64,000 nt of DNA. It comes from Chrysomallon squamiferum. Its lineage: Eukaryota; Animalia; Mollusca. The translations under genes and the position numbers were made by a program. Where the stretch lies: assembly GCA_012295275.1 (NCBI GenBank), contig CM022671.1:6324001-6388000 (forward strand). The letters are read 5' to 3'. The notes beneath the pieces are model-generated. The model was not told the DNA's origin. It made no database searches and saw only the letters and a program-made list of their open reading frames with translations. Shown in pieces: positions 2,242 to 34,273 of the stretch (its first letter is position 1; every line of letters begins with the position of its first letter).

Positions 2242-2257
2242 TTATTTGCCTGTAAAG

Positions 2258-2329
<72 letters not shown>

Positions 2330-5300
2330 CAACAACAACAATAATAATCATAATAATAATAATAAAGTTCATCATATTAATAGCAGAAGTAGTTATATAA
2401 CTTTAATAGTAGTTATAGTGCTAGTAACAACAGTAGTAGTAATAGTTATGATACTAGTAGTAGTAGTAGTAGTAGTAGAATTGTTTTTGGATTTCTTGTT
2501 GCTCTGGTTTAAAACTCTTTAACCAGGCTGTTTGTTAACTCTCAGAATATTTCCTTGGATTCAGTAGAAAATTAAATCTGTCATCTATCTCTACAGAAAA
2601 ATAAATTTATAATTACAAAATTTAAAAGAAAAAAGAAAAAAAAAAGCTCAAACTAGAAAAAAAAAAAATTTACCTTTAACAACAACTTCTTCATAGGCAT
2701 CAAAAGTTTGGCCAGAGGAATATTCAATTCTTTGTGTTTCTCCTCCAGGATGAACAATGATTTCTGAAGTTTCCACGCCATGTGGGTCAAATCCTTCATT
2801 CAAGACAAACACAGCTGGGTCGCCTGAGTCTTGATGGTGACTCTCTCCAGAGATAAAAACTGCAGGATCATCTGTCACATGTGGCGAGGACCCCTCTGTT
2901 ACAAACACTGTGGCTCCTTCAGAATGGTAGGGCTGCGAGTCTCCTGTTACCATGACAGTGGCTCCTTCAGAATGGTAGGGCTGCGAGTCTCCTGTTACCA
3001 TGACGGTGGCTCCTTCAGAATGGTAGGGCTGCGAGTCTCCTGTTACCATGACAGTGGCTCCTTCAGAATGGTACGGCTGCGGGTCTCCTGATACCATGAC
3101 GGTGACTCCTTCAGAGTGAGACCTCTGTGATTCTCCTGATATGACGACTGTGCCCCCTTCATGATATCCATCAGTTTGTGGTTTGCTTATGATGACAGTG
3201 GCTCCTTCTGAGTGAGATGTCTGCGATTCTCCTGATATGACAATAGTGCCTCCTTCAGTATGATGGACAGGTGAGTCTCCTGAAACAATGACAGTTGTTC
3301 CTTCATAATCATGCGAACTGGGTTCTCCTGATATAACTACAGTGGCTCCTTCAGAGTGGCGTCCCTGCGAGTCGCCTGATATGACCACAGTTGCTCCCTC
3401 AGAATCCTCCATATGTGAGTCTCGTGATATGACCACAGCTGCTCCTTCAGACTGCTGCTGTTGTGAGACAGTCTTTGTGAATGAGGTTGTCTGGCTGTAG
3501 TGAGGCTGGTGGTAGCTCTCTCGCTGCGATGCCTGAGTGTGATGTGGCTGGAAGTTGGCCCTCATCGATGCTGCGGTGTAGTAGTGTGCTCTGACAGAAC
3601 CTTCCTGCAGTCGAGGTGCATTGTCGTACTGGCGGCCATACACAGAGGCATAGTCATAGTCATTACCTGTAACACACAGTTAGTGCAATGTTAGTTCTGT
3701 CTAACAGATAACACATACTATTTGGTAAACTTGTTACACAATTGTAAAGGACTGTCCTGAAATCTATTGATGATCTGGACATTTTGAGATTTTAAATTTA
3801 TTTATTTATTTATTTTGTTTTTTGTTTTTTAAGATGACCATGAAGATAAAGATGTTTCATTATAATAAAACAAAACAGCTTTTAAAGTTTCTTTTCAAAT
3901 ATAATATCAGAAGTTTTTCCAGCTTTAATATTTTAATAAAGAAGCAAATATTTCATTCTTAATTTGTGATGGATGTCATCACTGTGTTAATTAGTATATA
4001 TCCTTAACATATTTGTTTAAACCACTGAATCAGAAGAGACAAAGTGGTTGTTTTTTTCTCTCACCTCTTTCCTTCTCGTACTCAAGATCCTCCTCCTCTA
4101 TGAGAGCCTGATATCTGCTCAGCAGCCACAGTTTCCTCAGCGGTCCACACAACAGCATGATGGTGGCATTGATGAGCAGTCCAATTGCAACAGCAGCATC
4201 TCTCACCTTGAGCACACCGATAGTTGACACGAGACACCAGATGACCCACGTGGGAACACTGAGGACAGCAATTCCCAGAATCCACCTGCTCTCGTGATGA
4301 TTCTTAGATTTGCCAAACGTTGCAAAGCCGAATATGATGCAGAGGATGATGAGGATCATAACGTAGATGAGTGAAAGGACGAGTCCAAGGTCATACACAT
4401 CAATAGGTGTGCATCTTGGCCACTGCACGCTGTTGTAGTAGACATAGGTGAAGAAAGGTGGTTGTAGGATCAACCATTCCGTGCAGATGATCACCTGGAC
4501 TGCTACAAGGAGCAGGACAATCATGAAGAATCCACAAGGCTTTCCCAGCTTGCTGTACTTTACTTCATCCTTGCTCCTTCCCCTCCAGCAGTCAATGAGC
4601 TTGACAAAGAGGGCGCTGTAACACAACGCATACACAAAACCAAGGGCAAACCTTCGCAGACCACAGATCTGTTCACTGGCATGAGCAATGAAGGCAAAGA
4701 CGAGACCATAAAGGAGAATGATACCAAAACACAGTATGTAACCAAGGATGGATGTTCCTCCTCGCACTGGGTACACCACCAGCAAGTAGATGAACATGCA
4801 GAGTGACACGAACACTCCAATTCCTGCCAGTGTCGCGACAACCAAAGCCCAGATTTGAGGGAAGCGAGATGTGGCGAAGGGAATGTTGTATGTTTTGCCA
4901 GTGAGGACATCAAAGTAAGACCAGTCTGTCCGGACGCTGGAGGCAGAGCCAGAGCCAGAGCCATAGCCTGCGACAGATGAACTTTCAAAGGCGTATGGTA
5001 TTAGTGTGATTCCATTAGCAGCCAGACACTGGCAGGATGATCCACTGGGACACTTGGAGTTGGGATAAACACCTCGATCCAGATTTCCAGCACCATAGTA
5101 CAATGTTTTGTTGAGTGTGAGACCACTTTTGTAGTAACCAATCTGCAAAAAGATTTTAAGATACCAGTATAAAATGATTTGTATGTGTTTATAGACAGGG
5201 GAAGAAAGAGTGAAAATATTTGCAGATCATCATGTTTAGTAATATCTGATGTAAGTAAACAATGTAATAAAAAGAGCTTCCCAGTTCCACTAAGCATACA

Positions 5301-8300
5301 ATTTATTGTTGTTTCCTTTTTGTAATATTATTTTATTTTATTTTACTTTTATTTATTTTATTTACATGTACAAAAGAAAAAAAAATAATGTTGCAGATTA
5401 GAAGACATTACCTGCTGGTAGATGTATCTGTCAATCTCTGCATTTCTGTAGTAGTTGAGGATGTTGTACCTCACATCACCATAGCCTTGGTCAGTGAAGC
5501 GGAACTGGAAAGAGTTGTTTTTCAGCTGGTCTGGCAGGACTGCCCACTGTGCTTTAGAAATGCCATTGAAAATCATGTCCCATCGTTTGTTTTGTTGCAG
5601 AGCAAGACAGGCAGAAATGTCAATGGGTAGCTGACGACATTGTTCAATGTTGTTGAGGCCGTATGCCACCATGAAGACGGAGATGATGGTTGAGAGGACG
5701 TAGTTGTCTTGTTTCACCATGTCCACTGTGATTCTCTCCTGACCAGTACAGATCTTGGCAAAGTGTCTGGTTACCACTGAGTTGAGAAGACGACAGTTGT
5801 GAATAGTCTGGTAGAATTCTTCAAACCAGTCGTCTGGGATGTTGTGTCTGTTGTCCAGGGTCAGTGAGGTCATGTAACTGATAAAACCCTTCACATTTTC
5901 AGACCGGATCTGTATTGTGATTGCTCCTTTAGCCTGCTCCTCGAGCTCCTTAGTCACCGAGTGACTGCTGCCCCAGTAATCACTAGCCAGCCACACAAAT
6001 CTTCCCGTGAGTCCTTTGTTTCTGGTTGCCTCAAGAAGCAGTCGGATCTGATGAGGCTCCACAAAGAGGATCACAACATTGGCACCCACCTGTTGACTCA
6101 GCCTGTCCACTGCTTGTTCAGCCTCAGCCAGAGTCATGTCCACTTTGAGCTCCACCTTGTTGGCAATGCAGGCTCTTGTGCCTGCAGCATTGGCCGATCC
6201 TAGCAGAGCTTTAACAGCCGACTGTCCATAAACAGACTCTGTGTAGACCACAGTGGCGTATGTCCAGCCAAATGACTTGAGCACCTGAAGCATGAGAAGC
6301 ACCTGGATGTTGTCAGGAGGAACTGTACGCAGGAAGTAGGGATGTTGATGTTTGTTACTCAGTTCCACGGAAGTAGCAGCAGGGCTGAGTGTGGTGATCT
6401 TCAGAGGGGACAGCATGCTGCTCAGGAGAATCGAGTTCTGGCTGCTGAATGGAATCACACTGACAATGGTTTTTGGTGCAATCACCTGGCCCACACTTCC
6501 ACCATGACACAGAGCTGTGCCACTGAGCAGGCTGTACATGTCTTGTCCCAGTCTCATTGGCTGGTTGCATGTATCGAGCACCAAACCTCCAAGTTTCAGG
6601 GAGCCAGGAAGGGTCCGGTCTTTGTTAACAAGTTCAATTGCATAGAAAAATGCCATTATCTGCTGGAAGTGCCAGTCAGCAAAGATTGGGCCGCAGCGGA
6701 AAGCATTGTTGGGGTCTTTGTCGTGAACGGCTCCCACATAGACGAGATTAAGGTCAAACTGTTTGAATGGCTTGTCAACCAACATGTACCGCGAAGGCTG
6801 GTATTCAGGAAATTTACACTGACATGCGTCTTTCACTCTGCAGTCACCTTCCACACTGATTCCATACTGGATCCACAGTTTCAAGTAATCTGTGTCATTG
6901 TAACTTCCAATCTGAAACAAGTTAATGTGACAACTGTCAAATATATTTAATACACCACCTAGGTGAAATAAATCTCGTAGTATTTAACTTTAAAAAATAA
7001 ATATACGTGTGTAAAATAGAAAGAAAAATAGAAATAAATCTGTTATAAAGATTTTATAAAATAAATGATGTTTTGAAAATAACACTTGAAAATAAATTCA
7101 GTATCTTATTTTTATCAAATGAATCCTGCGAATTATTTTTGTAAAATGTGTCTGATATCAAATTAATTTAGCATGAAATATAACATTTTTTTTGGAAAGC
7201 TTATTTTCTTTTATTTTCACTGATTAAGTAACTACAATTTTTAAAAATAAAATACACTGTTGTGTATTGATATTTATTTGAAATAATATTTACTGATACT
7301 ACTTTCTACACTCACATTTGTGTACTGGTACTTGGTACTGTTGGCCCCCATCTCTGGCTTGTAGAGATGATAGCCTCTGTCACTCTCTCCTCCCTTAGTG
7401 AAATAAAATGGCTGTTTTGTGTTGTCAGTGAATCTTGCTAGTCTTGTGCCCTTGTAGATTGTTTCACGTCTCTCTCCACTGGTGAGAAACAGAGAACATA
7501 TTCCATAGTAGTTGCCATTGCAGAGTTCTTTCAAAGCGTTGTGAACACCGATGGCAGCTGAAAAGACAGCATTGATGACGTAGAGCACATACGGATCTTG
7601 AACGTAGTTGGAGGAACGAGAAATTCCAAATTCTTTATCTGTACACATTCGTGGGTACCTGGAGTTTGTGGACTGTTTGAGGAAACACTGGTGTGCTTCC
7701 TGGAAAGCTTCGAGGAACCAGGAGGTGTTGCGAATGTAGTTGCTAGGCACTTTGTTTTCCAAGTACTCATCAAACTCGGGAACATCGGCTGTCTCCACGT
7801 CCAAAGTGACAGCGTTTTTGTTTCGGATGAGGTTTGGTATTTTAGCCAGGATGTCCATGTTGTTGCCCCATTTGTCGGTGCCAATGAAGAAGTGTTTCTC
7901 GTAAATATCCTTCATCGTTTCCGTGACTTCCAGGATGGGTCGCGGGTCGTCTACAAAGAGGACGACCACTCTAGCATTCGACTTCACTTTGTTCAGAGCT
8001 CTCTGCGCTTCCTCCCTGGTGACGGTGCCGTGCTGGCCGATGACGATCTGCTGCGACACACAGATTCGGTTGAGAACAGCCAGTCTGAGAAACTCCTCCT
8101 TCCCCTTCTCCCCGACACTGTCAAACGAGCTGATTATCTGAACGTACTCGATGTTCCACCTCTTCAGATACGAGATGATGGCCCTCGCCTGTTTGTCGTC
8201 AGCGGGGACCGAACGGAGAAAGTATCTGTACTTGCGGGGATTCTGCAGCTCCAGGCTGGTGGCTCCATACGTGATCTGTGGAATGGAGATGGCTGTGAGA

Positions 8301-11300
8301 ACATCGGCTACTCGAATGGCCGACTCGGAGTCGAAAGGACCAATGTACGTGTCAAAGTTATGGGGGTCTGCCACGAGGCTGCCTCTCTGAAGTTTGATGT
8401 TCCTGCTGTGGATGTTGGCGATGAGGTTGCCAGCACGGAGAGGATTCTGGCAGACATCAAGACCAATGCCTCCAATATCAACTCCTGGTAACAAATCTTT
8501 GAAGATTCCCTTTTTGTTGTTGACGTATTCAAGAGCAAAATTAAAGGCCTCCAGTAGCTGGTAGCCATGTTTGTTGTTGATGCTGCTGCACCCATAGGGG
8601 TTGCTGTCTTTTCCTCTGTGATGAATATCAAACAAACCTGAAAAAAAAAGCCACAAAACAATTACTTCAAAAAAAATAAGTTATGAATTTACTCCTTGAT
8701 GTTTGTAAGCTATGGAATAACTACGTGACTGAAAAACAAGTCACTCTCGCAACTAACGTACCAACAAAGTAGATATCTCCGTAGATGTGTGTGAAATCCT
8801 GGAAGTTTGTGCTGGAAGGGACGCAGATTTCTCTGCATTCATCTCCACAGGATCCACTGATGTTCAGACTGGCAAACTGGTTTCGCAGGAACTGGCTCTC
8901 TGTGAGGTTTAGCTGGTTCCAGTATGTCCCCACCTGTGTAGAGCACTTGTTATTAATATGCTTTGTTTGAAATAAACACTATTAATTATTCCTCTGTATA
9001 AATAATTAATTATTCATGTATAGCACTTCTATGTACTTTTAATTAACATGGTGGCTAATTATTTAAAATTCAGTAGTTAAATAATTATTTCTATATGTAA
9101 ACATAAGTATATAATTTATTATTATTATTATTATATTTATGTATGTATGGATGTATGTGTATGTGTGTACGTAGATACGTACGGTATGTATGTATGTATG
9201 TGTGTGTGTGTGTGTGTGCATGTATGTATGTATGTACGTCTGTGTATATTTATTTCTTTATTTTTTGTGTATAAATGTTTTGTTTAGAATAACATGTAGA
9301 AGAGTGTGATACTCACAACTTTGTGTGGCACAGATCCTTTTGATACAGAGTTTGGATAATACTGTCTCATGTCAAAACCACGATTAGCTTCTCTGTTGAC
9401 AAACTTAAACAGCTGTTGTGACAAGTCATTGAACTTTACAATCTCCAGAAAGCGGATGATGTTGGGGATGTCTATTGTACAAGTGCTGTCAAACTGACCA
9501 CCACATGCTTCGGTCATTGTCTGGTCAATTCCTTGTGCCAGCGCAAAGACAGCATTTATAGTGGACAGAACTCGGATGTCCTGTTTGAAATCATTTCTTG
9601 TCAGTCGGTAGGGACTTGAGCACTTGTTTGTTGAACCGTACAATGTGCATCCTTTCACTTTCTCGTAGTATTCGGCAAGCCATGGATTGGTCGTGCTGGT
9701 GGGGTCAAGGGTCATCATGTGCTGGATGAACTCACCGATGTCGGGATTGTTCATGCGGAAGAATACTGACCCGCTGATGACGTTTTCCTGCTGACTGGGA
9801 ACGTCCCAGTAGCGGTTGGACACAAACAGAAACTTCACCTTCGGAGACAAGGCTTGATTTGCTTTCAGCAAGTCACCGATGTACACGTCCGGCTCAGAAA
9901 AAACCATCACAACCTGAGTCTTCACTTTAGCCATGGACTGCATGATCAGAGTTGGACTCCCGTCGGTTTTGAACTCAAACGAAGCCAGGATGCAAATGTT
10001 CCGCTCTTTTGTGAGTTTCTTGAACTCTGCCAGCGTGTCTCTGCTGGAAACATCAGGAGCATTCAGAGTCATCACATGAGTCCATCCCATTGATCTGGCC
10101 AGGTCAACCATTGCCATGGCAATGTGCTTGTCACTGGGAACCGTCCTGAACAGCGACGTGAACCTCTTCTTGTCCATGAGAACTGGAGATGTTGCCGCAG
10201 GGCTGACAACAGGAAACTGCATTGGACTCAACATGTCGGCGATGTTGATGGTGCTCTGGCTGTCGTACGTCAGCCATCCACGATAGTCTAGCACTTTGAT
10301 TGGACGGTTGCTGGGGGACTTGAAGTTGATGAGACCACTCATCAGACTGCTGACAAGAGTTGTAGATCGCGTAGCCGAAGTACACCCATCCAGCAGCAGA
10401 CCTCCCAGTTTAAAATTATTCCTCGACAACCAGGATCCATTGACCTTGCCACTGTTGATGTAGTCGATAGCAAACTTGAATGCTTCGGTGTACTGGAAAC
10501 CATCAACATCTCGCAGACTGCCACAGCTGAATGGGTTCTCTCCTTGACGATGGACGTCAGCAACTGCAAGGATGATGACATCCCCGTCGATGTACAGATA
10601 CTTCTGGGTGTTGAAGAGGTACATGCACTCTGGACAAAAGTAGGGACAGGTAGGCTTAATTGTGTCCGGTGAAACTCCGTTAAACAGCTTTATAGATTCA
10701 TACTTAGAAACCTGCCTTGTGCTCACTGTGTACTGCATTTTCTGAAAAATATACAGGAATTATTTCTTGTAATCACTGATAATTCATTAATTAATAAAAC
10801 ATAAACTAAATTAATTATTTAATAAACTGTTTTACAGTTCAGTTCACACAGGTTAGGGGCAGCACTTACGTATTAGTCTGATTTTTATACATAATTCAAC
10901 AGTAGTAAGAAACCTAATAATTTATTTATATTTTCAGTGAATTCATTTAACTGCCTATTAATTGCATTTTTTTAAATTTTTTAAAATTTACCAGAATATA
11001 GTTATTTGAGTTGCGGTGGTAGTTGTAGATATCAAGAGGAATATCACCGCCATAGCCGTAAAACCTGAAAGTCTCTACAGTGTCATCCATGGTGAAGACA
11101 GCACTGCGGATGTTGTTGAGAAGCAGTGAAGTCTGATTAGCTGCATGTAGGTAATTTCCACAGACACCATTGTAACCCTGACCACATAGCTGTATCAGGG
11201 TTTTGTCCAAACCATAGGCAACAGCATACACAGCATCAATGACAAATGATGTGTATGGGTCAAGCTCAAAGTTCTTGCTGTCTGTGATTGCTTTGTTCTG

Positions 11301-14300
11301 AATGTCGGAACAGTTTGTTTTGTAACCTTTGGGATTGTCATTTCCGAGACTGCACTGGTGAACAACTTCATACCACTCTTTGAACCAGGGATTTGTTTTG
11401 TACGTGTCTGCTCGAAGTGTTTTCAAATATGTTGAAAACTTCGTCAGAGGAGAGAAGTGCCACTTGAGTGAAATGACCCCATCAGCAGTGCTCTCATGAC
11501 CTGAGATGATTTTTCTAGAATCTCCCCATGTGCTTGATGCTATGATGGAAAACTCTCCGTCTGCCTTTTCTGCAGCCAGACGTTCCAGAAATTTCCTGTG
11601 GTGCCACTCTTGAGCAATCACAACAACAGGTCTGACGGCTTTCTTCCTTCTCAGCTTTGTCACAACGTCATCATCAAGCTCATTCTCGGCTACAACGCAT
11701 ATGCCCTCTTCAGCTCCAAGACGTCTGAGTTCATCGTTTCCATTTCTGGAATAAGCGTCATCAGAGACAACAACAGTCTGGACGTAAAACCACTTGAACT
11801 CCTTGAGGAGGTGAATAATGGTGAGTACTTCCTGCGTCACCCCAGGGTTCACCCGCAGGTAGTATGGGTACTTGCTGCGATCATCTAGAAGAGAGGAGGT
11901 GCTGGCGTAGCCGACGACAGGATGCTTCAACGTATTCATCAGCTCAGCGACGGGAACAGTCCGAGGTGAGGTGTGAGCAGCTACAAATGCATCCACTGAT
12001 TCTGGTTTCAGCCGGTTGCCTTGGAGATCCTGCACCTGAAGTGACCCATGCTGCACCTGTGAAATGAGGCTCGCACCTAACATGGTGTTGCTGCAGTCGT
12101 CAAAAGCGAGGCCTCCAAGGTTCACCCCGCGTAGGAAATTTGGACCAAATTTGTTCTTCACGTTTTCCAGGGCATAAACAAAGGCCTGCATTGCCTGAGC
12201 TCCTGATCTCGTTCTTGTATCAAACAGTCCACAGGTGAAAGGCGAAGGACCCTGATTGTGCAGAGTGAAGATGCCGTTGATGACGATGTCACCGTGGATG
12301 TACAAGTACTTTGAGGTGAAGGGGTCACCGAGGCATGGTTTGCATCCTGTGGAAGGACAAGGTGATGGAGGGAGACTTGTGAGTGGTGTTGTCCTGTCGC
12401 TGTTGAACATCTGAATGTTGTTGACATTTATGTCCAGGTATTTGTTGACATATGAACCAATCTACAAAATAAGTAAAATAATCAACAGATACAACCACAG
12501 CAAAAATGAGCAACTGGATAAATATCAAACCGTAAGTATACCTTAGCATCTTGGATTCTGTTTTTTATATATATATGTATATATTTACATTCAGTGCAAA
12601 AGACCTCAAATATTTTCATAAATATAATGTTTATAATCATTATAAATAATTAATATTGATCTTATCATGACTTATGCTGCATTAAATAACAAATTAAATT
12701 CTTTGACAGCCTAAAAAACACTTGTGTTTTTTCATTTTGCATTGTATAATAATAGTTTCTTAAATTAGTGTACAATATTATCTTTCTAAAATATTATACA
12801 ATGTATAATACCTTTCTAAACTGTACAATATATATTACCTTTCTAAATTACTGTACAATGTATATTACCTTTCCAAATTACTGTACAATGTACATTACCT
12901 TTCTAAATTACTGTACAATGTACATTACCTTTCTAAATTACTGTACAATGTATATTACCTTTCTGAACCTGAAACCTTTGACACCTCTGATGGGGACATT
13001 GTTGTAGTTCCACACATCAAACTTGGGGTCTGTGATGTCGCCGTTGTCTCCGAACCTCAACCTGGCAGCAGCTTTGTAAGGCTCGTACTCGTAGGACGCC
13101 ATGCTGGGGATTCTCTCTGCCTTGCTGTATGTGAAGTTCACCTTCATCAAATAGTTCCTGAGAAAATCTCCAGACTGCATCTGGAGCAGCCCGGAGCAAA
13201 CCCCAGAGGATCCTTTCCCACACTTGTCCTGCTGTGCGTCGCGCAGTGCTCTGGCATATGCGTACACCGCGTGGACAGCAGGCTCTACAAACATGTCCTG
13301 TGTAAATGCCTTGCGTTTCTGCTCCTCCGACAGCAGCACGCACTTCTTCCACGGGCCGCTGAAGCTGCAGTCGTTTCTCTTCTCGTACCACTTCTGAAAC
13401 CAAGGGTTCTCTGCCCTCGTCTCGTTCTCCTTTATCCTCACCCAGTGATCTTCGAACTCGACGATGAACCGAGACTGCGGGACAATGACAAGAATGCCAC
13501 GCGGGTACAAGTTGTTTCCGAAATTGGAATTCAGAGAAATGGAGTCCGTGAAGACCCACTGGATTTTTCCCGATCCGGAAGAGTAAAAATGAGGGCCCCT
13601 CTTCAGAAGAGCCTCAGCAACAACAGCTGTGCCCAGGAAAAGAGTTCCTATGACAGACTCCCCCGTTTTGGACTCCAGTGTGCTGGTTATCTGCTGGAAG
13701 ATGGGATCGAGAGTTTTGTTCTGCGTGTCTGTAGGTGGTGTCTGAATGGCTGTAGTGAGACAGATGTTTGCTGCATTGAGACGAGGCCGAATTTCTTCAA
13801 ACGATGATCTGCCGTATGTGTTGTCAGTGTACACAACAACTTACATACTTCCAGCCTAATCTCTTAAGTACACTTACTATAACCTGTAACAGGAATGACA
13901 ATAACAATAATAATATTAATAGTAACAATAATAACAATAACAACAACAGTAATAGTAATAATAATAATAGTAAAAATAATAAAAATAATAATAATAGTAG
14001 GAATAATAATAATAGTAATAGTAATAATAACAATAACAATAACAGTAATAATAATACTAGTAATAATAACAAAAATAATAACAACAGTAGTAATAATAAT
14101 AAATAAAAATAATGGTACAAGTAATAATAATAATAACAGTAATAATAACAATAATAGTCATAATAATAATAATAAAAATAATAACAGTAATAACCACAAC
14201 AACAACAGATATAAAAATGCCTTACATCCATAAGGAAACCATCAGGAGGCACAGTTCTCATAAATGTTGGATATTCAGATAACTTGCTCAGTTCAGAAAC

Positions 14301-15811
14301 AGTTGATGAAAAAGAGATGACAGGAATGTCAAACTGTGCGCCAAATTTAGAAACTTCTTTAGTGTCGTCACTGGTATCAGCTCCAATAATACCTAAAATA
14401 AATACAAACACAATATTTATAATAATACTTAAAATAAATGTAATAAACACAATATTTATAATAATACTTAAAATAAATATAATAAACACAATATTTATAA
14501 TAATAATTAAAATAAATATAATAAACACAATATTTATAATGATACTTAAAATAAATATAATAAACAAAATATTTATAATGATACTTAAAATAAATATAAT
14601 AAACACAATATTTATAATAATACTTAAAATAAATATAATAAACACAATATTTATAATGATACTTAAAATAAATATAAACACAATATTTATAATAATACTT
14701 AAAATAAATATAATAAACACAATATTTATAATAATACTAAAAATAAATATAATAAACACAATATTTATAATAATACTTAAAATATATATAATAAACACAA
14801 TATTTATAATAATACTTAAAATAATAATAAACACCATATTTATAATAATACTTAAAATAAATATAATAAAACACAATATTTACAATAATACTTAAAAACA
14901 ATAATTGTGACAAATGATGACAAATACAGCAATAACATTTAAAATAAAACAATTCTCTAATAATACCTAAAATAAATATAATAAACACAGTATTTATAAA
15001 AATACTTAAAAAACTCAATAATTACAGTAAGATAATAAACAATAATTGTAATAACACCTAAAACAAGCAGAATTATTATAATAATACTTAAGTAAAATAC
15101 AATAAGTATTAAAAAACATCCTAAAATAAAGACAGTAATTAAATTAATATTGAAATATGAAGTACTGGTTAAGTTTTAAAACAAAAAACAAATAATAAAA
15201 ATCTAATGAATACAATTATCTGTAACTGAACAGATTTTTTTGTTGTTTATGTAAATATATATACACTGAACACAGAATAGAAGAAAACAAATTTAAAATA
15301 CTATTACATATAGACAGTTTTGCTGATTATTTAATTATTTCTATTTTACCTAATGTCATATTGGCTGTTGACTTAGTACAGGAGACAGAGTCAGAGGTTA
15401 GACCGGGAAAAAAGGACTCAGCTTTGTACACTGCTGTTGATGATTGGCTGCAGTAATCTTGCACGTTCATTCCTTTTTTTTTAAAAAAAAAAATACCAGT
15501 TATTAGAAATAAAGTGGATATTTTAATTAAAATATTATTAGAAATAATTTAACAAGGTTTATTATGTTGTAAAAAATCATTTATTTGTGTTTTTTTTAGA
15601 AAAAAATAACTAATTAAAGAGTGATTCATAAACCATAACTAGTAAAATATTTGAATATCTCTTTTAACTAATATTTAATATTTTAATTTTTAAAATCTTG
15701 TTAAAGGAAAATTTTTAAAAATTAAATATACACGAAAGAAAAATAATTAATGATAATAATAACAACAACAACAACAATCATAGTAATGAAAATAACAACA
15801 ATCATAATGAT

Positions 15812-15847
<36 letters not shown>

Positions 15848-16917: not shown

Positions 16918-16951
16918 TTTGTCTAATAATAATAATAATAATAATAATAAC

Positions 16952-17000
<49 letters not shown>

Positions 17001-17365: not shown

Positions 17366-17402
<37 letters not shown>

Positions 17403-18580: not shown

Positions 18581-18631
<51 letters not shown>

Positions 18632-18773
18632 TACATGCATGCATACATACACACACACATACATACATATATTATGTGTGTGTATACATGTTTCAATGTT
18701 TCAAATATATGTACATTTGTGTATATTATGTAAATTATTTTGTATGGTAGTGTCTGAATGTATAATACATGCA

Positions 18774-18822
<49 letters not shown>

Positions 18823-20161: not shown

Positions 20162-20203
<42 letters not shown>

Positions 20204-20826: not shown

Positions 20827-20902
<76 letters not shown>

Positions 20903-20931
20903 ATAGTAACAGTAACAATATTAATATTTAT

Positions 20932-20977
<46 letters not shown>

Positions 20978-21056
20978 CAACAACAATAATAGCAGCAGCA
21001 AGAACCACAACAACAACACAATTAACAAGTGTAATTACCTGTGTCTATATTTTTGC

Positions 21057-21424
21057 TCAGAAGCCAACGTCTGAGTCTTGTTTGGATTCTTGTCTCTGAT
21101 ACTCGTAAAAATGTGGATCATAGGCCTCATTTGTGTACACATCACTGAAGCCATTTTGATAGGATACTGAAAATAAAACATTTATTTTAAACATTATTGA
21201 TAATGTTGTAAAGTTCTAAAATGTGTGTCCTAAACAGCAACATATTTATTTTAAAACTTTAAAACTTTCGTCATTTAGCGATTCTTAAAATGTCATCACC
21301 ATTTTCTGATAGCAGATTACTAAATTTTTGTTTTAACCCTTAAAATAATTAGTGACAAAATATTAATAACTGTTCTAACTGTTACCATGGCAAAACTTGT
21401 ACAGACATTTCTATGGAAAATATT

Positions 21425-21467
<43 letters not shown>

Positions 21468-24400: not shown

Positions 24401-27400
24401 GCTTTATGTTACTCATACTTTTAGGTGTCAGGACAGAGTAACGCGACCCTTGGCTGTTACGAATTACAGGACACTCGGTGCAGGTGTCGTCACGGTTACA
24501 AGTACTGTCCCAGTTTCGTGCATAGTCTGAGATTTCAAGTTTTCCTGAACTAGAAAATGTTCCAATCTGAAAAAACCCAACAATAATAAAATTACAAATA
24601 ACAGTAGTTGTAGTGGCAGCAGAAATAATAGTGGTAGTACCGGTAGAAATAACTGTAGTAGTAGTAGTAGTACTAGTAACAGTACAAATACTACTATTAC
24701 TACTACTACTACTAATAATAAGAAGAACAAGAAATTGGTAATAATTAAAAAAATAAATTCAAAAGTTTAAAACTTGCTCTATTTCAAAGTAAAAAACAAC
24801 AAAAAACACACCTCTTTGTAATCATATCCTGGTTTGTTTTCAATCGGCCTCATCACAATGGAATAAAACTGATAGCCCTTGTTGCCTTCCCTCACTTCAC
24901 TGAACCCATCTTCATCTGAGAACTTCTTGTTCGAGAAGGCAAAAAGTGTGTGGGTTGGATCAGTGAAGGAGACATTCTGGAGGTGTTTGAGGACCAGATT
25001 TCTCCTGTCAGACATCTTTTTGTACGTCTCACACACTGCGACGTAGTTGTCACCGCACACCTCTCGTATAGCCTTGTCTATAGCAAACGCTGATGCGTAG
25101 ACTGCATTGATGACGTGCAAGATTCCTGTGTCCTGTTTGTACCGAATGCTCTTTGGAAGCTTCTTCGGTTCTGACTGACATTTTTCTGGATACAGGCCTC
25201 GAGATTTTGTCAGGTAGCAGTTATGAATATATTCATAATACTCGTTAAACCAAGGGTTTTCTTGAGCGTTTGCTGGACTCTTCGTTTCCAAGTACGTGTC
25301 AAATGCGCCAATGTTTTTAGTTTCCACATTTAGCGTGACAGAGCCTAAAGCGACTTCCTCTACTCCTCTGAAAGCATCTTCATTGTTGGCCCACGTCTCT
25401 GAACCAAGAAAACGGAATTTCCCCTTCGCGTTTGTGTTTCTCTGAACAGCTTTGAGGAAAGCGTTGATGTAGCTGGTGCCGGCAAAAACGACCACGGTGT
25501 TAGCCAACGGCTTTTTCATCAGTGCGGTGATGACGTTGTTACTACTCTCAGTGGACACGGTGCCGTTGTCAGGAAACAGAATCATCTGAGCGATACAGAT
25601 TCGGAATTCCGCAGCTAGTTTCTGAAACGCTCTGGCTGCCGATTCCCGTAATTGGTCAGCGTGTAGACCACCTGGACGTATCGGAAGTCGAACCGGTTGA
25701 GAAAGCTGACCATTGCCCGAGCCTGGTGATCGTCCGCAGGCACAGTCCTGTAGAAGTATGGGTACCTGTACTGATCCTTCAGCTGGGTGGAGGTGGAGGC
25801 GTAGCTGATTTGAGGGATCTTCAAGTCTTTCAGGATCCTCGCTAGGTAAATCGACTGGTCGCTGGCGTACGAGCCCACGTAAACATCGATATCGTCGGGG
25901 TTGATGGTGTCGGTGTTGCGTACGAGTTTGGTGAGCTTGTTGTGAATGTCAGACACGAGGTACCCTGTTCTGATAGCGCTCTCGCAGGTGTCGAGGCCCA
26001 CCCCACCCAGTCGAGTGCCCCTCAGAATGTCCTTGAACTTGCCCTCCTTGCTGTTGACCTGGCCGAGTGCGTAGTGGAAAGCCTCAAGAAGCTGAAACCC
26101 GTGCAGTGGTTTGATCGCTCCGCAGGTGAACGGATTGTAACTTTTCTCATGAACGTCGAACAGTCCTGAAAAAATTAAGTTAAACAGATGAACGAATGAA
26201 AGAAATAAACAAAGAAGTAGTATCTAAATAAATAATAAATAAATGAAACATATAAATAAACAAACTAACCAAAAATTCAGATAAACAAATAAATAAAACA
26301 TACAAATAAAATAAACAAAAATACAAATAAACAAATAAATAAAACATACAAATAAACAAACAAAATACACATAAACAAATATATAAATATATAAAACATA
26401 TATATAAACAAACAAAAAATACAAATAAATAATAAATAAATAAATAAATAAATTAATAAATAAATAAATAAATAAATAAATTAATAAACACAAAAAATTA
26501 GTAAACTTCTAAAACAAATATATAAGCACAAAAATAAATAAAATCAGCAAATAAATGTAGAATTACCATCATAATAATTACAACAGTAAGCTTAAACCTT
26601 TCGTCGTTTATTCATCATCATTTATTATAATTGAATGGGGTATAAAACACGCACCTCCTATGAGAATATCTCCAGGAATGTAGGTGAAGTTTAATCCTTG
26701 CTGCACACATCGGAGACAATTGCTACTGCAACTGGAACTGATGCTGCTGTAGTGGTTGCCAACTTTTTCTGTAATAATCTGAATTGTAGCACCGGCATAG
26801 CTGCCAATCTGAAATTTAAAATCGTTTACTTTTTAATCTTCATATTCCGAAATAACGAACATTTATAACATTTCAATCCATTCATTTATTTTATTTACAA
26901 TTTTTTTTTTTTTAATTAATCTTTTATTCCTTGTTATGATTATTATTATTGTTGTTGTTATTGTTGTTATTATTATTAGTCATTATTTACAAATTTATTT
27001 CATTTTACAAATTTTATAAATATATTACATACATATATATATACATACATACATACATACATAGATTCATACATTTAACACTTTTTATATTTTATTTTAG
27101 TTAAACTTTTTCCCTTTTTTTTAATTTACAATTTTCTTTATTTACAATTTCATTTCATTTTATTTCTTTATATACTATATTTTATTTGTTTACAATTTTA
27201 TTTTGATTTTTTTTGAAGAATAAACATCATGTGATGATGTGTACTTTAAACCATACACAACATAATTATCTAAAATTATTGATTATTATTTTTGTCTGCA
27301 ATTAACAATTAAACATCTTTAAATTTATTTTGCATTTTATTTATTTTTATTTATTGATTTATTAGTTCATATATTTATTTATTCATTCATTTATTTATTT

Positions 27401-27546
27401 ATTTATTTGCATGTGTAATATTATGTAAAGAATTAAGAAAATAAAGATATGGAAAAGAAATCAACAAATTAAAATGAAATAAATAAATAAATAAATAAAT
27501 AAATAGATAGAGACAGGGAGACAGACAAACAGACACAGAAATAAAC

Positions 27547-27583
<37 letters not shown>

Positions 27584-30500
27584 TAAATAAATAAATAAAT
27601 AAATAAATAAAAAGAGAATTTAGACAGTAAGACAGACAAACAGACTCAGAAATAAACAGACAGATAGATAGATAGATAGATAGACAGATATAAATAAATA
27701 AATGAACAAATAAATAAATAATTTGTAAAGTTAACTCACAGTTTCATATTGAGATCCATTGTATCTAACAAGATCATATTCCACATTTGCGTCTCTGTCT
27801 AGGAACTGGAAAGTGTTGGTGTTTACAAACGTCACTCTGTTCAGGTTCTGTGCTAGGACTGCTTGCACATTTTGTGCTTGCTGAAACTCCAGACAAAGTT
27901 CTTTGTAGCTTTCCCCACAAAACTGCTTCAGCGTCCTGTCCAGTGCATCAGCAACAGCATACACAGCATTTATGGTTGGCAAGACAAAACTGCTGACTTG
28001 TTTTACTGAGAAGTCTCGGAGAGATGTCCCGCATGACGATGCGTATTTGAAATATCCTGGCAGGTTGCACTTGAAAACCTCGCTGTAGTATTTTGAAAAG
28101 TATCGGTTGTCTTCTGGTTTCATTTTATTGATGTAGGAGAGGAACCCAGCTGTTGCAGTAGCTGGAGATTTCAGTTTCAGTGCGAGCATGTTGGTAGCGG
28201 TGGTACCTGCACCTGACACAACGGTATCAAAAGACGTTGGCGAGATGAGGACGATGTTGCTAGCTTTTGCAGACTGTTTAGCAGTCAGAAACTTCTTCAT
28301 GTCACTTTCTCCCAGATACAAGACAACCACGTGAGAAGCGCTGTCACTGACAGCCTTCACGACATCAGCAGCAGTGTTGTTGTCAGTCATAACGTGCATT
28401 CCTATGATGCAGATGCCTTCTTGCTGGGCAGCAGCCTCCAGATACTTGACCCCACTCTTGTCCTCCTCGCTGAGTCCTCGCACAGCATGAACGTACACCA
28501 AGTTGAGAGACTTCGCCAACTTCACCATCGCCATGGCGAGAGTGTCCTCTCCCAGCACAGTTCTGTAAAACACCGGGTTACTTTTCAGAGACCTCGCCGT
28601 GGAAAACGGACTGACGACGGGTATGTTAAACTGCTGCAAGAAGCTTCCTGCCTCCGCGGCGCTGATGGTGCTGTCTGTCAACCACACTGGGACTCTCCTC
28701 GGCCGCAGCTTGCTGGTGTCAGTCCCCCACGTCGACATCGACTTCTCGACCAACCCGGAATAGAAAGAGTTCAGGAGACCGTACGTTCTCCTAGGGTTGT
28801 TGCAGTGATCCTCCATGAACCCGCCTAAAGTCACACCCTTCACACCCACCGGAGCTTTACCCGAGTTCACCATCGACAGAGCGTACTGCATCGCGGCTGT
28901 CAGCTGGAAGCCATCGGCCGTCACGCCGCTACCGCATGCGAACGGTCCACTGCCACCTGGTGTTGAAACGGCAAATATCCCGCCAATGATGAAGTCTCCT
29001 GGGATGTACATGTGCGGTTCAGCCTGATACACGTAGCACTGATAGCACTTACCACTGCACTGAGAGGGTAACCCATAGCTCGGTGGTTTTGCAACGCTCT
29101 TTGGGTCAAAATTAGAATTTAGAAATCCAGTTTTAGTGTTGTAAGAGGTAACCTAAAATAAAATTAAAAAAATTAAATTAAAAAAAAAAATTAAAAAAAA
29201 TTAAATAAAATATATTTATAATGCAAATTTATTATCTGACAAATGGTAGAATGTCAAAATATTTGTATTTCAGCTAAATATGAAATGACATAAAGGAAAA
29301 AAAAAATTGTTTCCATTAGTGGATTTAATCTAGAAACCTATGATCAAAAATTAATAAAATAATATTTAAAAGTTGTGATAAATTACAAAAACTTGCAAAC
29401 CTTGACATACTGTCCACTTTTCACACTGAAAATGTTAAAGTTCTGAGTCCCTTCACCATTCACCACCTCAAATGAATATGGCGTATTCTCCTCCACGTAG
29501 TTCAGTTGAATATTTCTGATGTTGCTAAGCAACTTCTCATTGAATTCTGGCGACACTCGTGCCTTGTTGCAGACAACACTGTAGCCACTGCCACAGATGT
29601 CAACAAGGGTGTTGTGTATAGCCTTTGCCGATGCATACACAGAGGAAATCAGTGCTGCTGTGTTGGGTTGGATCCATAGTTGTGATACCAATAAACCAGA
29701 ATCACAAGCTTTCTGGTAGAACTGTTTGTTTCCTGCGTTCAGGTAACATTTGAATTCTGATTCATACCACTTTGAAAATATAGGATCCTGTCGAATCTTC
29801 TCCAGAGTGTTGTAGGTCTGAGTGAGATACTGTTTGAATCCGAGGTTCTGCTGCGAGTCCATCTGGAAGATGATGCTGCCTTCTGCCTGCGAGTTGTAGT
29901 CCTGTATGACAGACAGACGTGTGCCCCAGGGCTCAGCTCCAATCAGCTGATACTCACCTATCGCACCCTGGTCTTTCATTCCTTGGAACAGAGTCCGGAT
30001 GTCGGCTTTGAATCCAAATACAACGATGGTACTGGCCAGGTAGTTTTCTCTGAGTTTGTTGACAAGTTCTCTGCCCGACATGCCAAACTTGTAACTTGCT
30101 GCCATGCAGATCTGAGCTTTCCTTGCTTCTCTTTCCATGTCCTTGAGGGCCTGCTCTCCAAACGCATCATCGCGAACAACAAGTTGAAAATACGTCCAGC
30201 CCATCCTCTTCATGAAAGTGACGATTGCCTTGGCCTGCACAGCATCAGAGGGCACCGCCGGTTGAAGTAGGGATACAGAGACCTGTCTGACAGTTTGGAT
30301 GCTGTTGCCATTGAATCTATTTCGGGAATTCTGAAACTGGAAGTAACCAGGGACGTCTGCTCCAGTGTGTAGGTCAGTGAACTCTGAACGAACATTTTCA
30401 GTTTGTGAGGGTCAACGTATCTGTTTTGCGAGTCTTTGTAAACCCTTGCGCCACTGAGCAGGTTGACGAGGAAAGATGACAAGACTTCCCGATTGCTGCA

Positions 30501-31052
30501 TGCATCGACGAACAGACCTCCAAGCTTGACGTTTTTCAGAGTGTTGGCTGGAAGCACGTCCTGAGTATTTGCTCAGCGCGTATTTGATTGCTATCAGACT
30601 CTGCAGATTCGTTGTGCTGTAATCTCCACAGGAAAATGGCTCATGGCCCTGGTTGTGTAGCTGGGTCAGACTTCCAATCAAGATGTCTCCCGGCACCTGC
30701 AGTATCTCAACAGGGTTGTAAGGCAGCACGCACTCGTTGCAGATGTTGCTGGTACACAGTGACACTGGAAGGCTGCTGATGATGTTGTCACGATTCCTGT
30801 TGTAGAAAGTCAGGTCTGAAGTGTTCAGATTGAGTATGTTGTTGCTGAAGTTACCAACCTGAAAGAAGACAGTTTGTTAGCTATGAGTGGCTGCTTTTGT
30901 CTGTATGTATCTGTATGTGTGTGTGTGTGTGTGTATTGTGTGTGTCTGTATGTATCTGTGTGTGTGTGTGTGTGTGTGTGTCTATTGTGTCTGTATGTAT
31001 CTGTGTGTGTGTGTGTGTGTGTGTCTATTGTGTCTGTATGTATCTGTATGTA

Positions 31053-31090
<38 letters not shown>

Positions 31091-33804
31091 TGTATGTATC
31101 TGTGTGTGTGTGTGTGTGTGTGTGTGTCTATTGTGTCTGTATGTATCTGTGTGTGTGTGTGTATGTGTGTGTGTGTCTGTTCGAATGTGGGTACTCTTTC
31201 ATATCAGTATTTAATAACCATTATTTCTATATTGTATTATCAATAACAAAACGCAAACAGAATAATTCACAAAGTGAAGTTTTTAACTCTCTCTCTCACC
31301 TGCTGAAATCTGTTGTTTTTGTACTGCCAGACACCAAACTGACTTTCCGGTGGGTCCCCATTGCTGTCAAACTGCACAGTCTGTCCAACCAGACTTGCTA
31401 TTCCGTCCGACGTCTGGAACGTGTACCGTGCTTTCTTCAAATACGAGTTATGAAACTCCATGGGATCCATGTTTCTCAACCCATAGCAAAGCTGGCCAGT
31501 GCCTCCACAGTTAAACTGACTGGCCTGGCGCAGAGCCTCTGCATATACATAAACTGCCTTGATGGTGGTGTCCACATAGGGCTGTTGTGTGAATTTGTTT
31601 ACATTGCCTTTGGGTATAAAGTCACAGGAGCTCTGGTAGTTTACATAAGGAGGGTTAGTGACTCCAGTAAATTTACATTTGTTTACCAGCATGTACCACT
31701 CCTTGTACCAAGGGTTCTCAGTCGTCTGTCCCGCAGCATTGTATTCAAGATTGACGAAGTAACTTCTGAATTCTTGTATAAGCGTTGTTGATGGTTGCAC
31801 GATGATAGCACCCTTGACAACTTTTTTCTGGTCGTACGACTGCTCTAGGGAAAGGTCGCTGAAAATCCACTGAATTTCGGCAAATTTCTGATCTGAGGAC
31901 ATCACTGAATCCATCGCATCAATAACGGTGTCGAGTGAACGAAATGAGCCCCAGACAATTCCACCCTTTGCACTGGTCTTAGACAACGTTGACAGCTGCT
32001 GTCTGTAATAATCCAGAGTTCCACTTTCTTTCAGTGGCAAAACCTGTATAATACATTTCTTCTGGCTGAAGGTCAGTTGACTAATGTCCTTGAAAAAGTC
32101 TTTGCCATAATCAGTTTCACTGTAAACAAGAACGATTTTCTGCCACTGAAGTCTTCCAAGCAGTTTATCTATTACCTGTAACAAAACAATTCAAAGAAAT
32201 ACTGAGTGAAAAACAGTGATGACTTTTAGAAAATACTATCAGTGTGGCCAGGAAGTCATTCTTCCTTTTTTTTGTGTTTGTTTACTTTTATTATTTTGTT
32301 GTTGTTGTTGTTTCCCAAAAATGCAAAAATGCAAAATAAAAAATATAAAAACAATTATTATGTTGTAATAATCAGTTATGATCAGTAATAATTATTTATA
32401 TCAGTCTGCTAATTGTTTATCGTCTGTGTAAAATTATTTATGATATGTCTAGCAATTGTTTATGATCTGTCCTACCCTTGCAAACAGGGCAGTGGAAGGA
32501 CTAGTTCTCAGGAAAGTAGGATAGAGGGCTTTGTTGCTTAGTTCAGAGGATGCAGCCCGAGGAGACACAGCTGAGGCGGTGAATGACTTGATTAGAGCTG
32601 CCACCATTTTAGATGTCCAACTACTGACAGGTCCAAGAAAACCTGGAAATAAATAAATAAATAAATAAATATTGATATAGATTACTGACTAACTAATAAA
32701 TAAATTTGTTAAGCACTTTTTATTTAAACTTTAAAAACTGTAACCAAAATACATAAAGAATTGCTTAAATACACGTACAGAATCGGCTGACAGTATTTTA
32801 AACACGTAACTAATACAACTAAATAGTTAAATAAAAAAAAAAAATAAATAAATAAATAAACCAAATATAAAAATTAATGCACAAAGAGAAAAAAAAAAAT
32901 ACCTAGAGTTATTTGCTGTGGGTTCACCGAGGTGCAGGATTCCTTTGGTGATGTAGATCTGGGGTAGAACTCATAAGCGGCATTTGTACCCTGTACGGTC
33001 GAGTAACATGTATCATAAGCCTTAATGCCTGTAAACCAATAAAACAGTTACTGAAAATAATTGTTTTAAACATATCAAATACAGAAACATAAACTGCAAA
33101 TTTATTGTGTTAAAACCAAATTCAGAAAATAATTCCGGGGAAAAATAAATAAAAATAAAAATAATCAAAGTTTGAAAACAATTAATGAAATCGTTTAATA
33201 TTTTATCTTATTTTTTTTAATTATTTAATAATAATAATAATCACATTTTTTTAATATAATTTTTCATAAATTGACAATTTAAAATACATTTTATGGAACA
33301 CACCAAAAACAAAAACAAAATAAATGTAATTAAAACGAAAGGTGAAGGTGAAAAAGGGAGAGTATTCTGTACAATGTACATCTTCAAAAATATTTACTGA
33401 AAATTATGGTATGCTGGAGAAAAAAAAAAAAAGAAGAAAAAAAAAGTATATATATATAACGATATATATATATATATCGGCTTGTGGATAAGAGCCATGT
33501 TGATACAGCATTTATTTCGAAGCCAATAGCACATATATATATATATATAGATACCTGTTTTCAAATTAACAGTGACAGACGGCACCAAGTTAAGTAGAAA
33601 TATTATCATCATCGTCTTTGTGTCCCTTTCACTTTATGTATGTTTTAAACAACAACGACAGCAACAACAACAATAATAATACTCACCCAGAGTTATGCCT
33701 GGTATTCGATTAGCTATATTTATTTTCCCAATCGCCCACCGAGCAGCTTCGTAAATCTGCATTGTATCTAGTGGAGACAACAACAACAACAATAATAATA
33801 ATAA

Positions 33805-33835
<31 letters not shown>

Positions 33836-34273
33836 AAGAAGAAGAAGAAAAAGTGGAAGAAGATCAACAACAGCAGCAACAACAATAGTAAGAGTAAGAA
33901 GAAGAAGAAGAAGAAACAATGCAAAAACTCATTGAATAAATATTTCAAAATTATTTTGGATTTACTACGTACTTCTATGTTTTATTTTATTATTATTATT
34001 TTTTTTATTATTTATTTATTTATTTGGTTAAAGTTATGCATTATTATTTATCCTTTTAAATTATAAATTATTTTTCTCACCTCGAGCGGGGAGACCACAC
34101 CCATACCCATCAGATCCCTGAATTCGCATTCCAAACAGGCCCCCAATGACAGCGTTAGCGTTAACTGGGTACACGCTGGTGGACAGTTTACTAACGTCAC
34201 AAGTCTCGGCTGCCATGTCTTCAGCCGTCACACACGTCATACACAACGCCAGCATAATCAAAAGTCTCGCCAT
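21057..34273 (-). CDS. Giant class C GPCR-like receptor, paralogue B: signal peptide + 5 tandem Venus-flytrap domains + 7TM + short tail (~2810 aa, 12 coding exons)
   Basis: Exons 34273-34081, 33767-33687, 33028-32903, 32642-32476, 32175-31300, 30858-29401, 29152-27740, 26808-26655, 26165-24812, 24566-23076, 22709-21708, 21166-21057; same intron positions and phases as paralogue A (exon 4 is 167 nt in both). Signal peptide MARLLIMLALCMTCVTA; ends ...QDSDVGF*. Four 1-nt frameshifts (~30564, ~30258, ~25646, ~22530). Confidence 0.85.
21708..22709 (-). CDS. Paralogue B exon 11: Cys/Pro-Thr linker + class C 7TM domain (one frameshift)
   Basis: CPAGLICGC, then WAIAVAVL...YPIRGGT...CAARR...IEWLIL...NYSESRWI...RDPTVAI...PLRK. 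Confidence 0.88.
23076..24566 (-). CDS. Paralogue B exon 10: Cys linker + VFT domain 5
   Basis: 1491-nt phase 0-0 exon; CNRDDTCTEC, IIGVFDIH, VDTC, LARTSPP, WFDEYY. Confidence 0.88.
24812..26808 (-). CDS. Paralogue B exons 8-9: Cys linker + VFT domain 4 (one 1-nt frameshift)
   Basis: CSSNCLRC, GLFDVH, IPQISYASTS, FYRTVPADD, SETW, ENPWFNEYY. Confidence 0.88.
27740..29152 (-). CDS. Paralogue B exon 7: Cys linker + VFT domain 3
   Basis: 1413-nt phase 0-0 exon; CSGKCYQC, PGDFIIGGIF, LGGFMEDHC, INAVYAVA. Confidence 0.9.
29401..30858 (-). CDS. Paralogue B exon 6: Cys linker + VFT domain 2 (two 1-nt frameshifts)
   Basis: Three consecutive ORFs (30412-30765, 30210-30557, 29383-30255) join into one VFT: CTSNICNEC, PGDILIG, LGGLFVDAC, VPSD, AEPWG. 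Confidence 0.85.
31300..34273 (-). CDS. Paralogue B signal peptide and VFT domain 1 (exons 1-5)
   Basis: AVIGGLFGMR, QIYEAARWAI, GFLGPVSS, FLRTSP, ENPWYKEWY, KAVYVYA. Confidence 0.87.

Follow-up and report, generated by a model that had tools for sequence, protein, structure and literature searches.

Activation in class C of the G protein-coupled receptors, or GPCRs, is understood as the closing and reorienting, within a dimer, of one Venus flytrap domain (VFT) per chain, and the class IV metabotropic glutamate receptors (mGluRs), or insect mXR, have this ordinary single-VFT layout. According to the sections of PMC12716839 cited here, metazoan glutamate-family architectures are constrained to three layouts. 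Tandem VFTs have a single relevant precedent in the literature searched, the bacterial BvgS family, in which signals are described as passing through VFT-VFT contacts in the dimer (PMC4352136, in part). Here we analyze a tandem pair of genes, A and B, carried on the minus strand of a 64,000-nucleotide stretch of contig CM022671.1 from the mollusc Chrysomallon squamiferum (the window), which is AT-rich animal DNA with many microsatellites. Each gene encodes five VFTs and one class C seven-transmembrane domain (7TM). The five-VFT family is real and old, and apparently an undescribed variant of a known receptor class. It is not peculiar to Chrysomallon squamiferum, since public databases already list its members under names such as 'uncharacterized' or 'hypothetical'; what is new here is the tandem A/B pair and a residue signature in the fifth VFT (VFT5). 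We propose, with a probability of about 0.5, that A and B are class C GPCR subunits that pair through VFT5, most likely with each other, and sense amino-acid-like ligands other than glutamate.

The exons of gene A (16917-2242) and gene B (34273-21057) were mapped by hand, 13 in A and 12 in B, with GT-AG at every intron. The predicted products of 3163 and 2809 amino acids, in which X is placed at frame breaks, contain no internal stop. In window coordinates, the features of the two genes are as follows:

gene A, exon 1, 16719..16917, minus strand: start codon, likely signal peptide and start of VFT1; aligns with the N-termini of orthologues
gene A, exons 2-4, 16125-16015, 15472-15350 and 14392-14226, minus strand: upper lobe of VFT1, with GT-AG introns
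gene A, exon 5, 12959..13883, minus strand: remainder of VFT1 (ANF_receptor E 1.8e-13); contains a one-base assembly error at ~13841
gene A, exon 6, 10992..12461, minus strand: three-cysteine stub and VFT2 with a degenerate pocket
gene A, exon 7, 9317..10741, minus strand: stub and VFT3
gene A, exons 8-9, 8933-8762 and 8637-7316, minus strand: stub and VFT4 (best solved match mGlu7, E 1.4e-47)
gene A, exon 10, 5412..6911, minus strand: stub and VFT5, with a complete amino-acid-backbone pocket, helix-B Tyr and extra loop Cys
gene A, exon 11, 4065..5142, minus strand: last stub, short stalk and class C 7TM (7tm_3 E 3.3e-34)
gene A, exons 12-13, 3666-2674 and 2249-2242, minus strand: cytoplasmic tail with a YDN motif and lineage-specific 16-residue repeats, stop
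gene B, exons 1-4, 34273-34081, 33767-33687, 33028-32903 and 32642-32476, minus strand: start, likely signal peptide and upper lobe of VFT1
gene B, exon 5, 31300..32175, minus strand: remainder of VFT1 (ANF_receptor E 4.9e-17)
gene B, exon 6, 29401..30858, minus strand: stub and VFT2; assembly frameshifts at ~30570 and ~30257
gene B, exon 7, 27740..29152, minus strand: stub and VFT3 (ANF_receptor E 3.9e-24)
gene B, exons 8-9, 26808-26655 and 26165-24812, minus strand: stub and VFT4 with a complete pocket; frameshift at ~25644
gene B, exon 10, 23076..24566, minus strand: stub and VFT5, with helix-B Trp, extra loop Cys and a degenerate pocket
gene B, exon 11, 21708..22709, minus strand: last stub, stalk and class C 7TM (7tm_3 E 3e-29); frameshift at ~22532
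gene B, exon 12, 21057..21166, minus strand: short tail with YxN motifs, stop; C-terminus like that of the Patella and Pinctada B orthologues

End to end, the two proteins are 29% identical. Each of the 11 introns of gene B coincides with a gene A intron, or lies no more than about 12 alignment columns from one, and has the same phase, and these common positions and phases indicate a whole-gene duplication. No additional VFT or 7TM copy was found in the window. A 39-bp AT-rich minisatellite of 16 copies (14385-15011) adjoins the acceptor site of gene A exon 4.

A first-pass annotation, made from the letters of this DNA alone, held that the long minus-strand open reading frames are not separate mGluR genes and splice in frame into two proteins of about 2800-3200 amino acids. 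The sizes agree with those of our gene models, both of which fall within the span 2242..34273 given there, and the joining of the frames is borne out for gene A from VFT1 to the 7TM. Read evidence covers positions 3900-13895 of gene A, where contigs were aligned; nine of the 11 sequencing runs listed contain the gene A stretch, two of them being RNA from a single study. All six introns in this interval are skipped by RNA contigs of runs X8 and X9 and by no DNA contig. The spliced junctions observed link VFT1 to VFT2, 2 to 3, 3 to 4, 4 to 5 and, in X8, VFT5 to the 7TM. Loose ends of X9 continue into exons 4 and 12, and the join of exon 4 to exon 5 is visible in this way. The longest RNA piece listed is 880 nucleotides, and no one contig spans the full gene A message. 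Separate single-VFT genes or secreted VFTs are ruled out for A by these joins, and across the family by nine full-length, unnamed Logan proteins of 2764-2893 amino acids (two of them B-type), whose contigs of 8.6-11.1 kb leave no room for introns; we infer that these contigs are whole transcripts.

The in-frame part of the earlier claim fails for the sequence as assembled, which has one frameshift in gene A (~13841) and four in gene B (~30570, ~30257, ~25644 and ~22532). One base at 13840/13841 is absent from RNA runs X8 and X9 and from DNA run X4, so the gene A frameshift is an assembly error. The breaks in gene B are all single-base shifts, two of which adjoin short G runs, and orthologues align on either side of every one. 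Read through these breaks, the 2809 codons of gene B include no in-frame stop, and all 53 cysteines are retained. Among the 40 variants shown out of 104 in gene A, 30 are exonic, 24 of them synonymous and six replacement.

Pfam, run on 14 exon pieces of the two genes, found five ANF_receptor units per gene (E 1e-11 to 2e-47 per piece), one 7tm_3 domain (PF00003) per gene with E-values (3.3e-34 in A, 3e-29 in B) better than the curated cut-off, and no NCD3G match at E 0.01 in either gene. This is the 5/1/0 count predicted by the first-pass annotation, and six of six full-length relatives scanned gave the same result. The single signal peptide proposed for each chain is likely (a hydrophobic N-terminal stretch was seen by eye in A and picked up by a hydropathy scan in B). 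Both class C features, a 7tm_3 domain and extracellular ANF_receptor VFTs, are thus present in A and B, and a predicted model of the Haliotis orthologue has seven helices. The layout of mGluR classes I-III is one VFT plus a nine-cysteine NCD3G domain; here we find five VFTs and three-cysteine stubs. The PDB matches listed are mGluR, CaSR and GPRC5D rather than GABA-B, and kinship with GPRC5 is at odds with an ectodomain of about 2500 amino acids and with the ranking of mGlu3 above GPRC5D. An Atlas feature search returned generic 7tm_3 clusters only, one GABA-B2-like row at 0.89 being an unconfirmed lead. By these sequence features, we class both proteins as GPCRs of class C that lie outside mGluR I-III, GABA-B and GPRC5.

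Three sequence searches returned 6, 41 and 7 matches. They include 40 full-length relatives (2725-3067 amino acids) from gastropods, bivalves, cephalopods and nemerteans, which together with A and B make up the 42 rows counted below; all 42 align across the five units. Nine shorter proteins were excluded from these counts (P0001-P0004, P0027, P0044, P0046, P0005 and P0006), the last two being unclassified mGluR-like proteins used as reference or outgroup rows. P0046, an unnamed Logan protein of 1750 amino acids, has two ANF_receptor units, one apparent membrane span, a long glutamine-rich tail and no 7tm_3: it is a two-flytrap cousin without the GPCR domain. Database names of the relatives are mostly 'uncharacterized', 'hypothetical' or 'unnamed', and three read 'metabotropic glutamate receptor 3'. 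The nearest relative of A is from Haliotis (52% identity) and that of B from Patella (40%).

Phylogenetic analysis (a quick tree and FastTree) separates an A clade of gastropods, bivalves and cephalopods from a B clade of gastropods and bivalves, with supports of 99 and 100 in the Shimodaira-Hasegawa-like approximate likelihood ratio test (SH-aLRT). Each clade holds both gastropods and bivalves; A and B are old paralogue clades whose split is older than the gastropod-bivalve divide. The FastTree branch lengths of B and of Patella B are 0.70 and 0.64. In a FastTree analysis of 120 VFTs from 24 proteins, each of positions 1 to 5 forms one clade that holds 24/24 rows (support 0.95-1.0) and spans A, B and nemertean sequences; the five-unit chain is therefore older than both duplications and than the mollusc-nemertean split. 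VFTs within gene A are mutually 19-27% identical, and this divergence, together with the position-wise clades, rules out a recent repeat expansion. Adjacency of the two genes outside Chrysomallon squamiferum is read from locus numbers alone: Mytilus (LOC127711238/239) and Mercenaria (LOC123533310/311) have successive numbers, and in Sinanodonta (011304/011309) the two are not far apart. Consecutive pairs are also found in the nemerteans Tubulanus (LOC141898799/800) and Lineus (LOC135483288/289). The four nemertean proteins (P0033, P0034, P0047 and P0048) have 12 cysteines in VFT3, not 10, in 4/4 cases; their pockets are nearly all complete, and they are possibly nearer the ancestral state.

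In the three proteins listed, each repeat unit consists of a VFT and, after it, a stub with three cysteines. We placed the dimer columns through an alignment to mGlu7, the two reference rows and the numbering of mGlu1 and mGlu2. A helix-F cysteine resembling mGlu2 C234 occurs in every one of the five VFTs in 42/42 rows. In mGlu2, helix F runs from pocket residue Y216 to C234, and C234 bonds C518 of the cysteine-rich domain (PMC12394075, sections cited); we infer that each VFT is similarly bonded to its own stub. In several orthologues the last stub starts with P-x-S-x-C, as the mGluR cysteine-rich domain does in both reference proteins. The cysteine-rich domain is reduced here to a three-cysteine stub, not absent. 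Units 1 to 5 have 9, 10, 10, 10 and 11 cysteines, respectively, and three more bring the total to 53 per ectodomain in both genes. One cysteine is peculiar to VFT5, where it occupies the loop that follows helix B in 42/42 rows; the odd, spare cysteine of the ectodomain would most simply be this one. Its place matches that of the interchain cysteine of mGluRs.

Described elements of the mGlu2 dimer are an interface of L103, L154 and F158 and an interchain disulfide at C121 (PMC7271767, in part). The L103-like site of helix B is aromatic (Tyr, Phe or Trp) in VFT5 of all 42 rows, and in VFT1-4 of 1, 0, 2 and 0 rows. All three interface sites are hydrophobic in 9/12 rows of A5 (VFT5 of the A clade; other units are named likewise) and 7/10 of B5, as compared with 0-2 rows in other A and B units. 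The loop-cysteine column is occupied by Cys in one of the two mGluR-like references. As sequence features, then, the dimer marks are confined to VFT5, in the A and B clades alike.

Our pocket rule comprises the five backbone-binding positions of mGlu1, S165, T188, D208, Y236 and D318. The set is complete in A1 (9/12 rows), A5 (9/12), B4 (7/10) and B2, B3 and B5 (5/10 each), and in no row of A2, A3, A4 (0/12) or B1 (0/10). All 12 A rows have Arg or Gln at the D318-like site of A3 and Val or Ile at the Y236-like site of A4; such conservation suggests that these two pockets bind other ligands rather than decay. In Chrysomallon squamiferum, A1, A5, B2 and B4 satisfy the rule and B5 is degenerate. 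Residues R78 and K409 occur together in 0/120 VFTs and singly in 5 and 4 of the 120, and genes A and B have neither in any VFT. Glutamate is an unlikely ligand on this count, no VFT carrying both residues (the logic follows the cited part of PMC6307864). The first-pass annotation had considered a multi-ligand sensor. Pockets that differ and are kept by position would fit such a sensor; A2, with 0/12 complete sets, looks non-binding and does not.

In the 7TM, the cysteines of transmembrane helix 3 (TM3) and of extracellular loop 2, as well as K3.50, are present in 42/42 rows and E/D6.35 in 41/42. The best solved matches are mGlu3 and mGlu2 (mGlu3 E 4e-22 for A); GPRC5D is a weak PDB match (E 8.5e-7 for A and 5e-4 for B). 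A YxN motif, presumably an SH2-docking site, lies in the tail of 38/42 rows, a count not controlled for chance. Gene A has a tail longer by some 260 residues, a large part of which are 16-residue repeats. These SEGATV-type units are encoded by 48-bp tandem repeats (2896-3405, minus strand) and are absent from the Haliotis, Mytilus and Batillaria tails, Patella having a different long low-complexity tail. AlphaFold models of Haliotis VFT5+7TM (predicted local distance difference test, pLDDT, 86; predicted template modeling score, pTM, 0.63) and Pecten VFT4+VFT5 (pLDDT 89, pTM 0.57) are confident within domains and give no fixed inter-domain orientation; built on 36-43 sequences, they are weak either way.

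In the mechanism we favor, the VFT5 domains of the chains would dimerize by their upper lobes in the manner of mGluRs, and the spare loop cysteine would lock this dimer with a disulfide. Closure of the VFT5 pair would reach the 7TM by way of the helix-F cysteine and three-cysteine stub, in a shortened version of the link that joins VFT and cysteine-rich domain in mGluRs. VFT1-4 would project as two arms lacking the mGluR dimer face. Outer VFTs with intact pockets (A1, B4 and partly B2) may add ligand inputs or tune VFT5 via helix-F-to-stub links, and degenerate ones (A2) may act as spacers or protein-binding units. With a full pocket in A-VFT5 and a degenerate one in B-VFT5, the Chrysomallon squamiferum chains could divide labor as GABA-B1 and GABA-B2 do. 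On binding an amino-acid-like ligand, the receptor would signal through G proteins.

Several observations weigh against this proposal. The proposed mechanism is read from residue patterns, and gene B has its four frameshifts, the read evidence covering gene A. The A5 pocket is incomplete in 3/12 rows. The second reference protein has Val in the VFT5 loop-cysteine column, and polar residues or proline predominate at the L177-like helix-C site of every unit, even VFT5. All 42 rows carry Asp or Asn at the R3.53-like site, so that G-protein coupling may differ. The dimer marks of VFT5 fit homodimers equally well. The pair is apart in Patella (SNE40_003935 vs 002421), and the two Babylonia genes lie on contigs that differ in length. 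No named cephalopod is found among the B-type matches, though one unnamed B row (P0043) branches deeply. Finally, the four nemertean proteins cluster together, so pairing is not established as one ancient A/B unit. Trees forcing two of them onto B are rejected by the approximately unbiased (AU) test (p 0.001; 12 rows, VFT4-7TM, LG+G4 without mixture, where gene conversion or fast B evolution could mislead), and a single ancestral A/B pair common to molluscs and nemerteans was discarded on this basis.

A more ambitious version of our proposal is rather unlikely: an undescribed lophotrochozoan family of ten-flytrap A/B heterodimers, whose pairs arose separately in molluscs and nemerteans. The VFT5 pair would be a disulfide-locked hinge driving the 7TMs and the eight outer VFTs two allosteric chains, each unit wired to its neighbor by a helix-F-to-stub disulfide, so that one receptor would sum several different ligands binding as far as four domains away from the membrane. 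We also doubt that A and B are adhesion or mechanosensory GPCRs, in which outer VFTs on a long stalk attach to matrix, to mucus or to proteins of cell surfaces, and the VFT5 pair is moved by tension or contact rather than by a small ligand. Such a stalk would account for a count of exactly five units in 42/42 rows with position-specific identity, for the retention as domains of units with degenerate or altered pockets (A2, A3, A4 and B1) and for the YxN tail motif; activation of mGlu2 by force has also been reported (10.64898/2025.12.08.692793, in part). However, A1, A5 and B4 in most orthologues, and nearly all nemertean units, keep a full pocket, which a pure stalk does not need, and Pfam detects no GPS/GAIN or other adhesion module.

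The A/B heterodimer itself is likely, in our view, to be favored over homodimers, given a long-kept, often adjacent pair with complementary VFT5 pockets. That A and B instead form separate VFT5-linked homodimers for different ligands or tissues, their adjacency being a relic of tandem duplication, is unlikely, even if the low A/B identity (29%), the symmetry of the dimer marks between A and B, the split pairs of Patella and Babylonia and two apparently intact 7TMs all agree with it. Here and, to judge from locus numbers, in two or three bivalves, adjacency has outlasted the old split, nemerteans too have adjacent pairs, and in Chrysomallon squamiferum B-VFT5 has lost its pocket and kept its dimer marks. 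Improbable in our judgment is the notion that gene B has recently decayed to a pseudogene, or is a null allele, and that A alone functions here. What invites it is the count of frameshifts, four over ~8.4 kb of coding sequence in B and, in A, a single one that reads prove to be an error; yet B shows no in-frame stop and only GT-AG splice sites, its breaks are single-base, two beside short G runs, with orthologues aligning on both sides, its branch length resembles that of Patella B, its 53 cysteines are kept, and the like break in A proved to be an assembly error. The intramolecular VFT-dimer receptor suggested by the first-pass annotation, a monomer folding its own flytraps into dimers, is very hard to credit. 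Five VFTs per chain do supply the components, and hydrophobic residues predominate at the L154- and F158-like sites of every unit. Nevertheless, neither the helix-B aromatic nor the loop cysteine is present in VFT1-4, the stubs are short, and the spare VFT5 cysteine, as the odd one in the count, has no partner in its own chain.

Elsewhere in the window, exons at 37475-40958 (plus strand) likely encode a hydrolase of the HAD superfamily (ALDFDLT motif; weak PNK3P match, E 0.28) and include a transposon-like segment at 39095-39698, both labels being assigned by inspection. An exon at 52740-53078 (plus strand) resembles mitochondrial ribosomal protein L18 (weak Ribosomal_L18p match, E 0.14). From 53432 to 64000, nested local duplications of 0.7-1.7 kb (74-80% identity) surround an EF-hand exon at 59874-60212, whose matches fall below the curated cut-off; the region is likely a tandem array of small calcium-binding genes. 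Inverted repeats of ~630 bp with 95% identity (48882-49505 and 50768-51397, within 48882-51397), with related pieces at 38717-40255, look like the terminal repeats of a DNA transposon.

In agreement with the first-pass annotation, which knew of no functional description of the five-VFT architecture, none was found in the literature searched, nor any description of a multi-VFT class C GPCR, including under locus numbers; the search covered mainly open-access text, supplements being outside its scope, and one of these, Supplementary file 12 of PMC12716839, could list multi-VFT proteins. Retained across gastropods, bivalves, cephalopods and nemerteans, a five-VFT receptor offers a natural way to ask whether ligand binding can be relayed along chained flytraps, and how short the link between VFT and 7TM can be. 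Its residue pattern makes sharp predictions, with a single cysteine responsible for the dimer and three or four pockets live. For oysters, mussels, abalone, octopus and Biomphalaria, the family further points to an orphan system of sensing or signaling, concealed by 'uncharacterized protein' labels.

How, then, do these proteins compare with known systems? The start of TM7 (D-x-x-V-A-I...NA) and the tyrosine-motif tail resemble GPRC5. GPRC5 and BOSS differ in that mGlu3 scores far higher against the A and B 7TM and that GPRC5 has short N-termini; kinship with GPRC5, a motif likeness, is thus unsupported by the match ranking (mGlu3 over GPRC5D). GPRC5 receptors are, moreover, described as chordate-specific in the cited part of PMC3238225. 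BvgS-family sensor kinases resemble A and B in placing tandem VFTs, one to five per chain, over a membrane signaling unit (PMC4352136, sections cited); they are bacterial histidine kinases, not GPCRs, and the analogy is drawn without sequence comparison. If the ten-flytrap heterodimer proved true, it would be the GPCR counterpart of these kinases. In their working, A and B would parallel the GABA-B1/B2 and T1R heterodimers, paralogue pairs in which one proximal VFT keeps its pocket and the other has lost it. A and B further resemble GABA-B in having no NCD3G match; they differ in that their VFTs and 7TM match mGluRs, GABA-B being absent among the PDB matches listed, and that their heterodimer is a prediction. 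From mGluRs they differ by their five VFTs, by a nine-cysteine domain cut to a three-cysteine stub, by never having R78 and K409 together, by Asp or Asn at the R3.53-like site of TM3 and by the end of TM7. What they share with mGlu2, mGlu3 and mGlu7 (PDB 2e4z, 9ii2 and 3lmk) is the VFT fold (TM-score to target 0.90 for 3lmk), the class C 7TM, the cysteines of the VFT (that resembling C234 among them) and two marks of VFT5, an aromatic residue in the dimer face and a cysteine in the loop.

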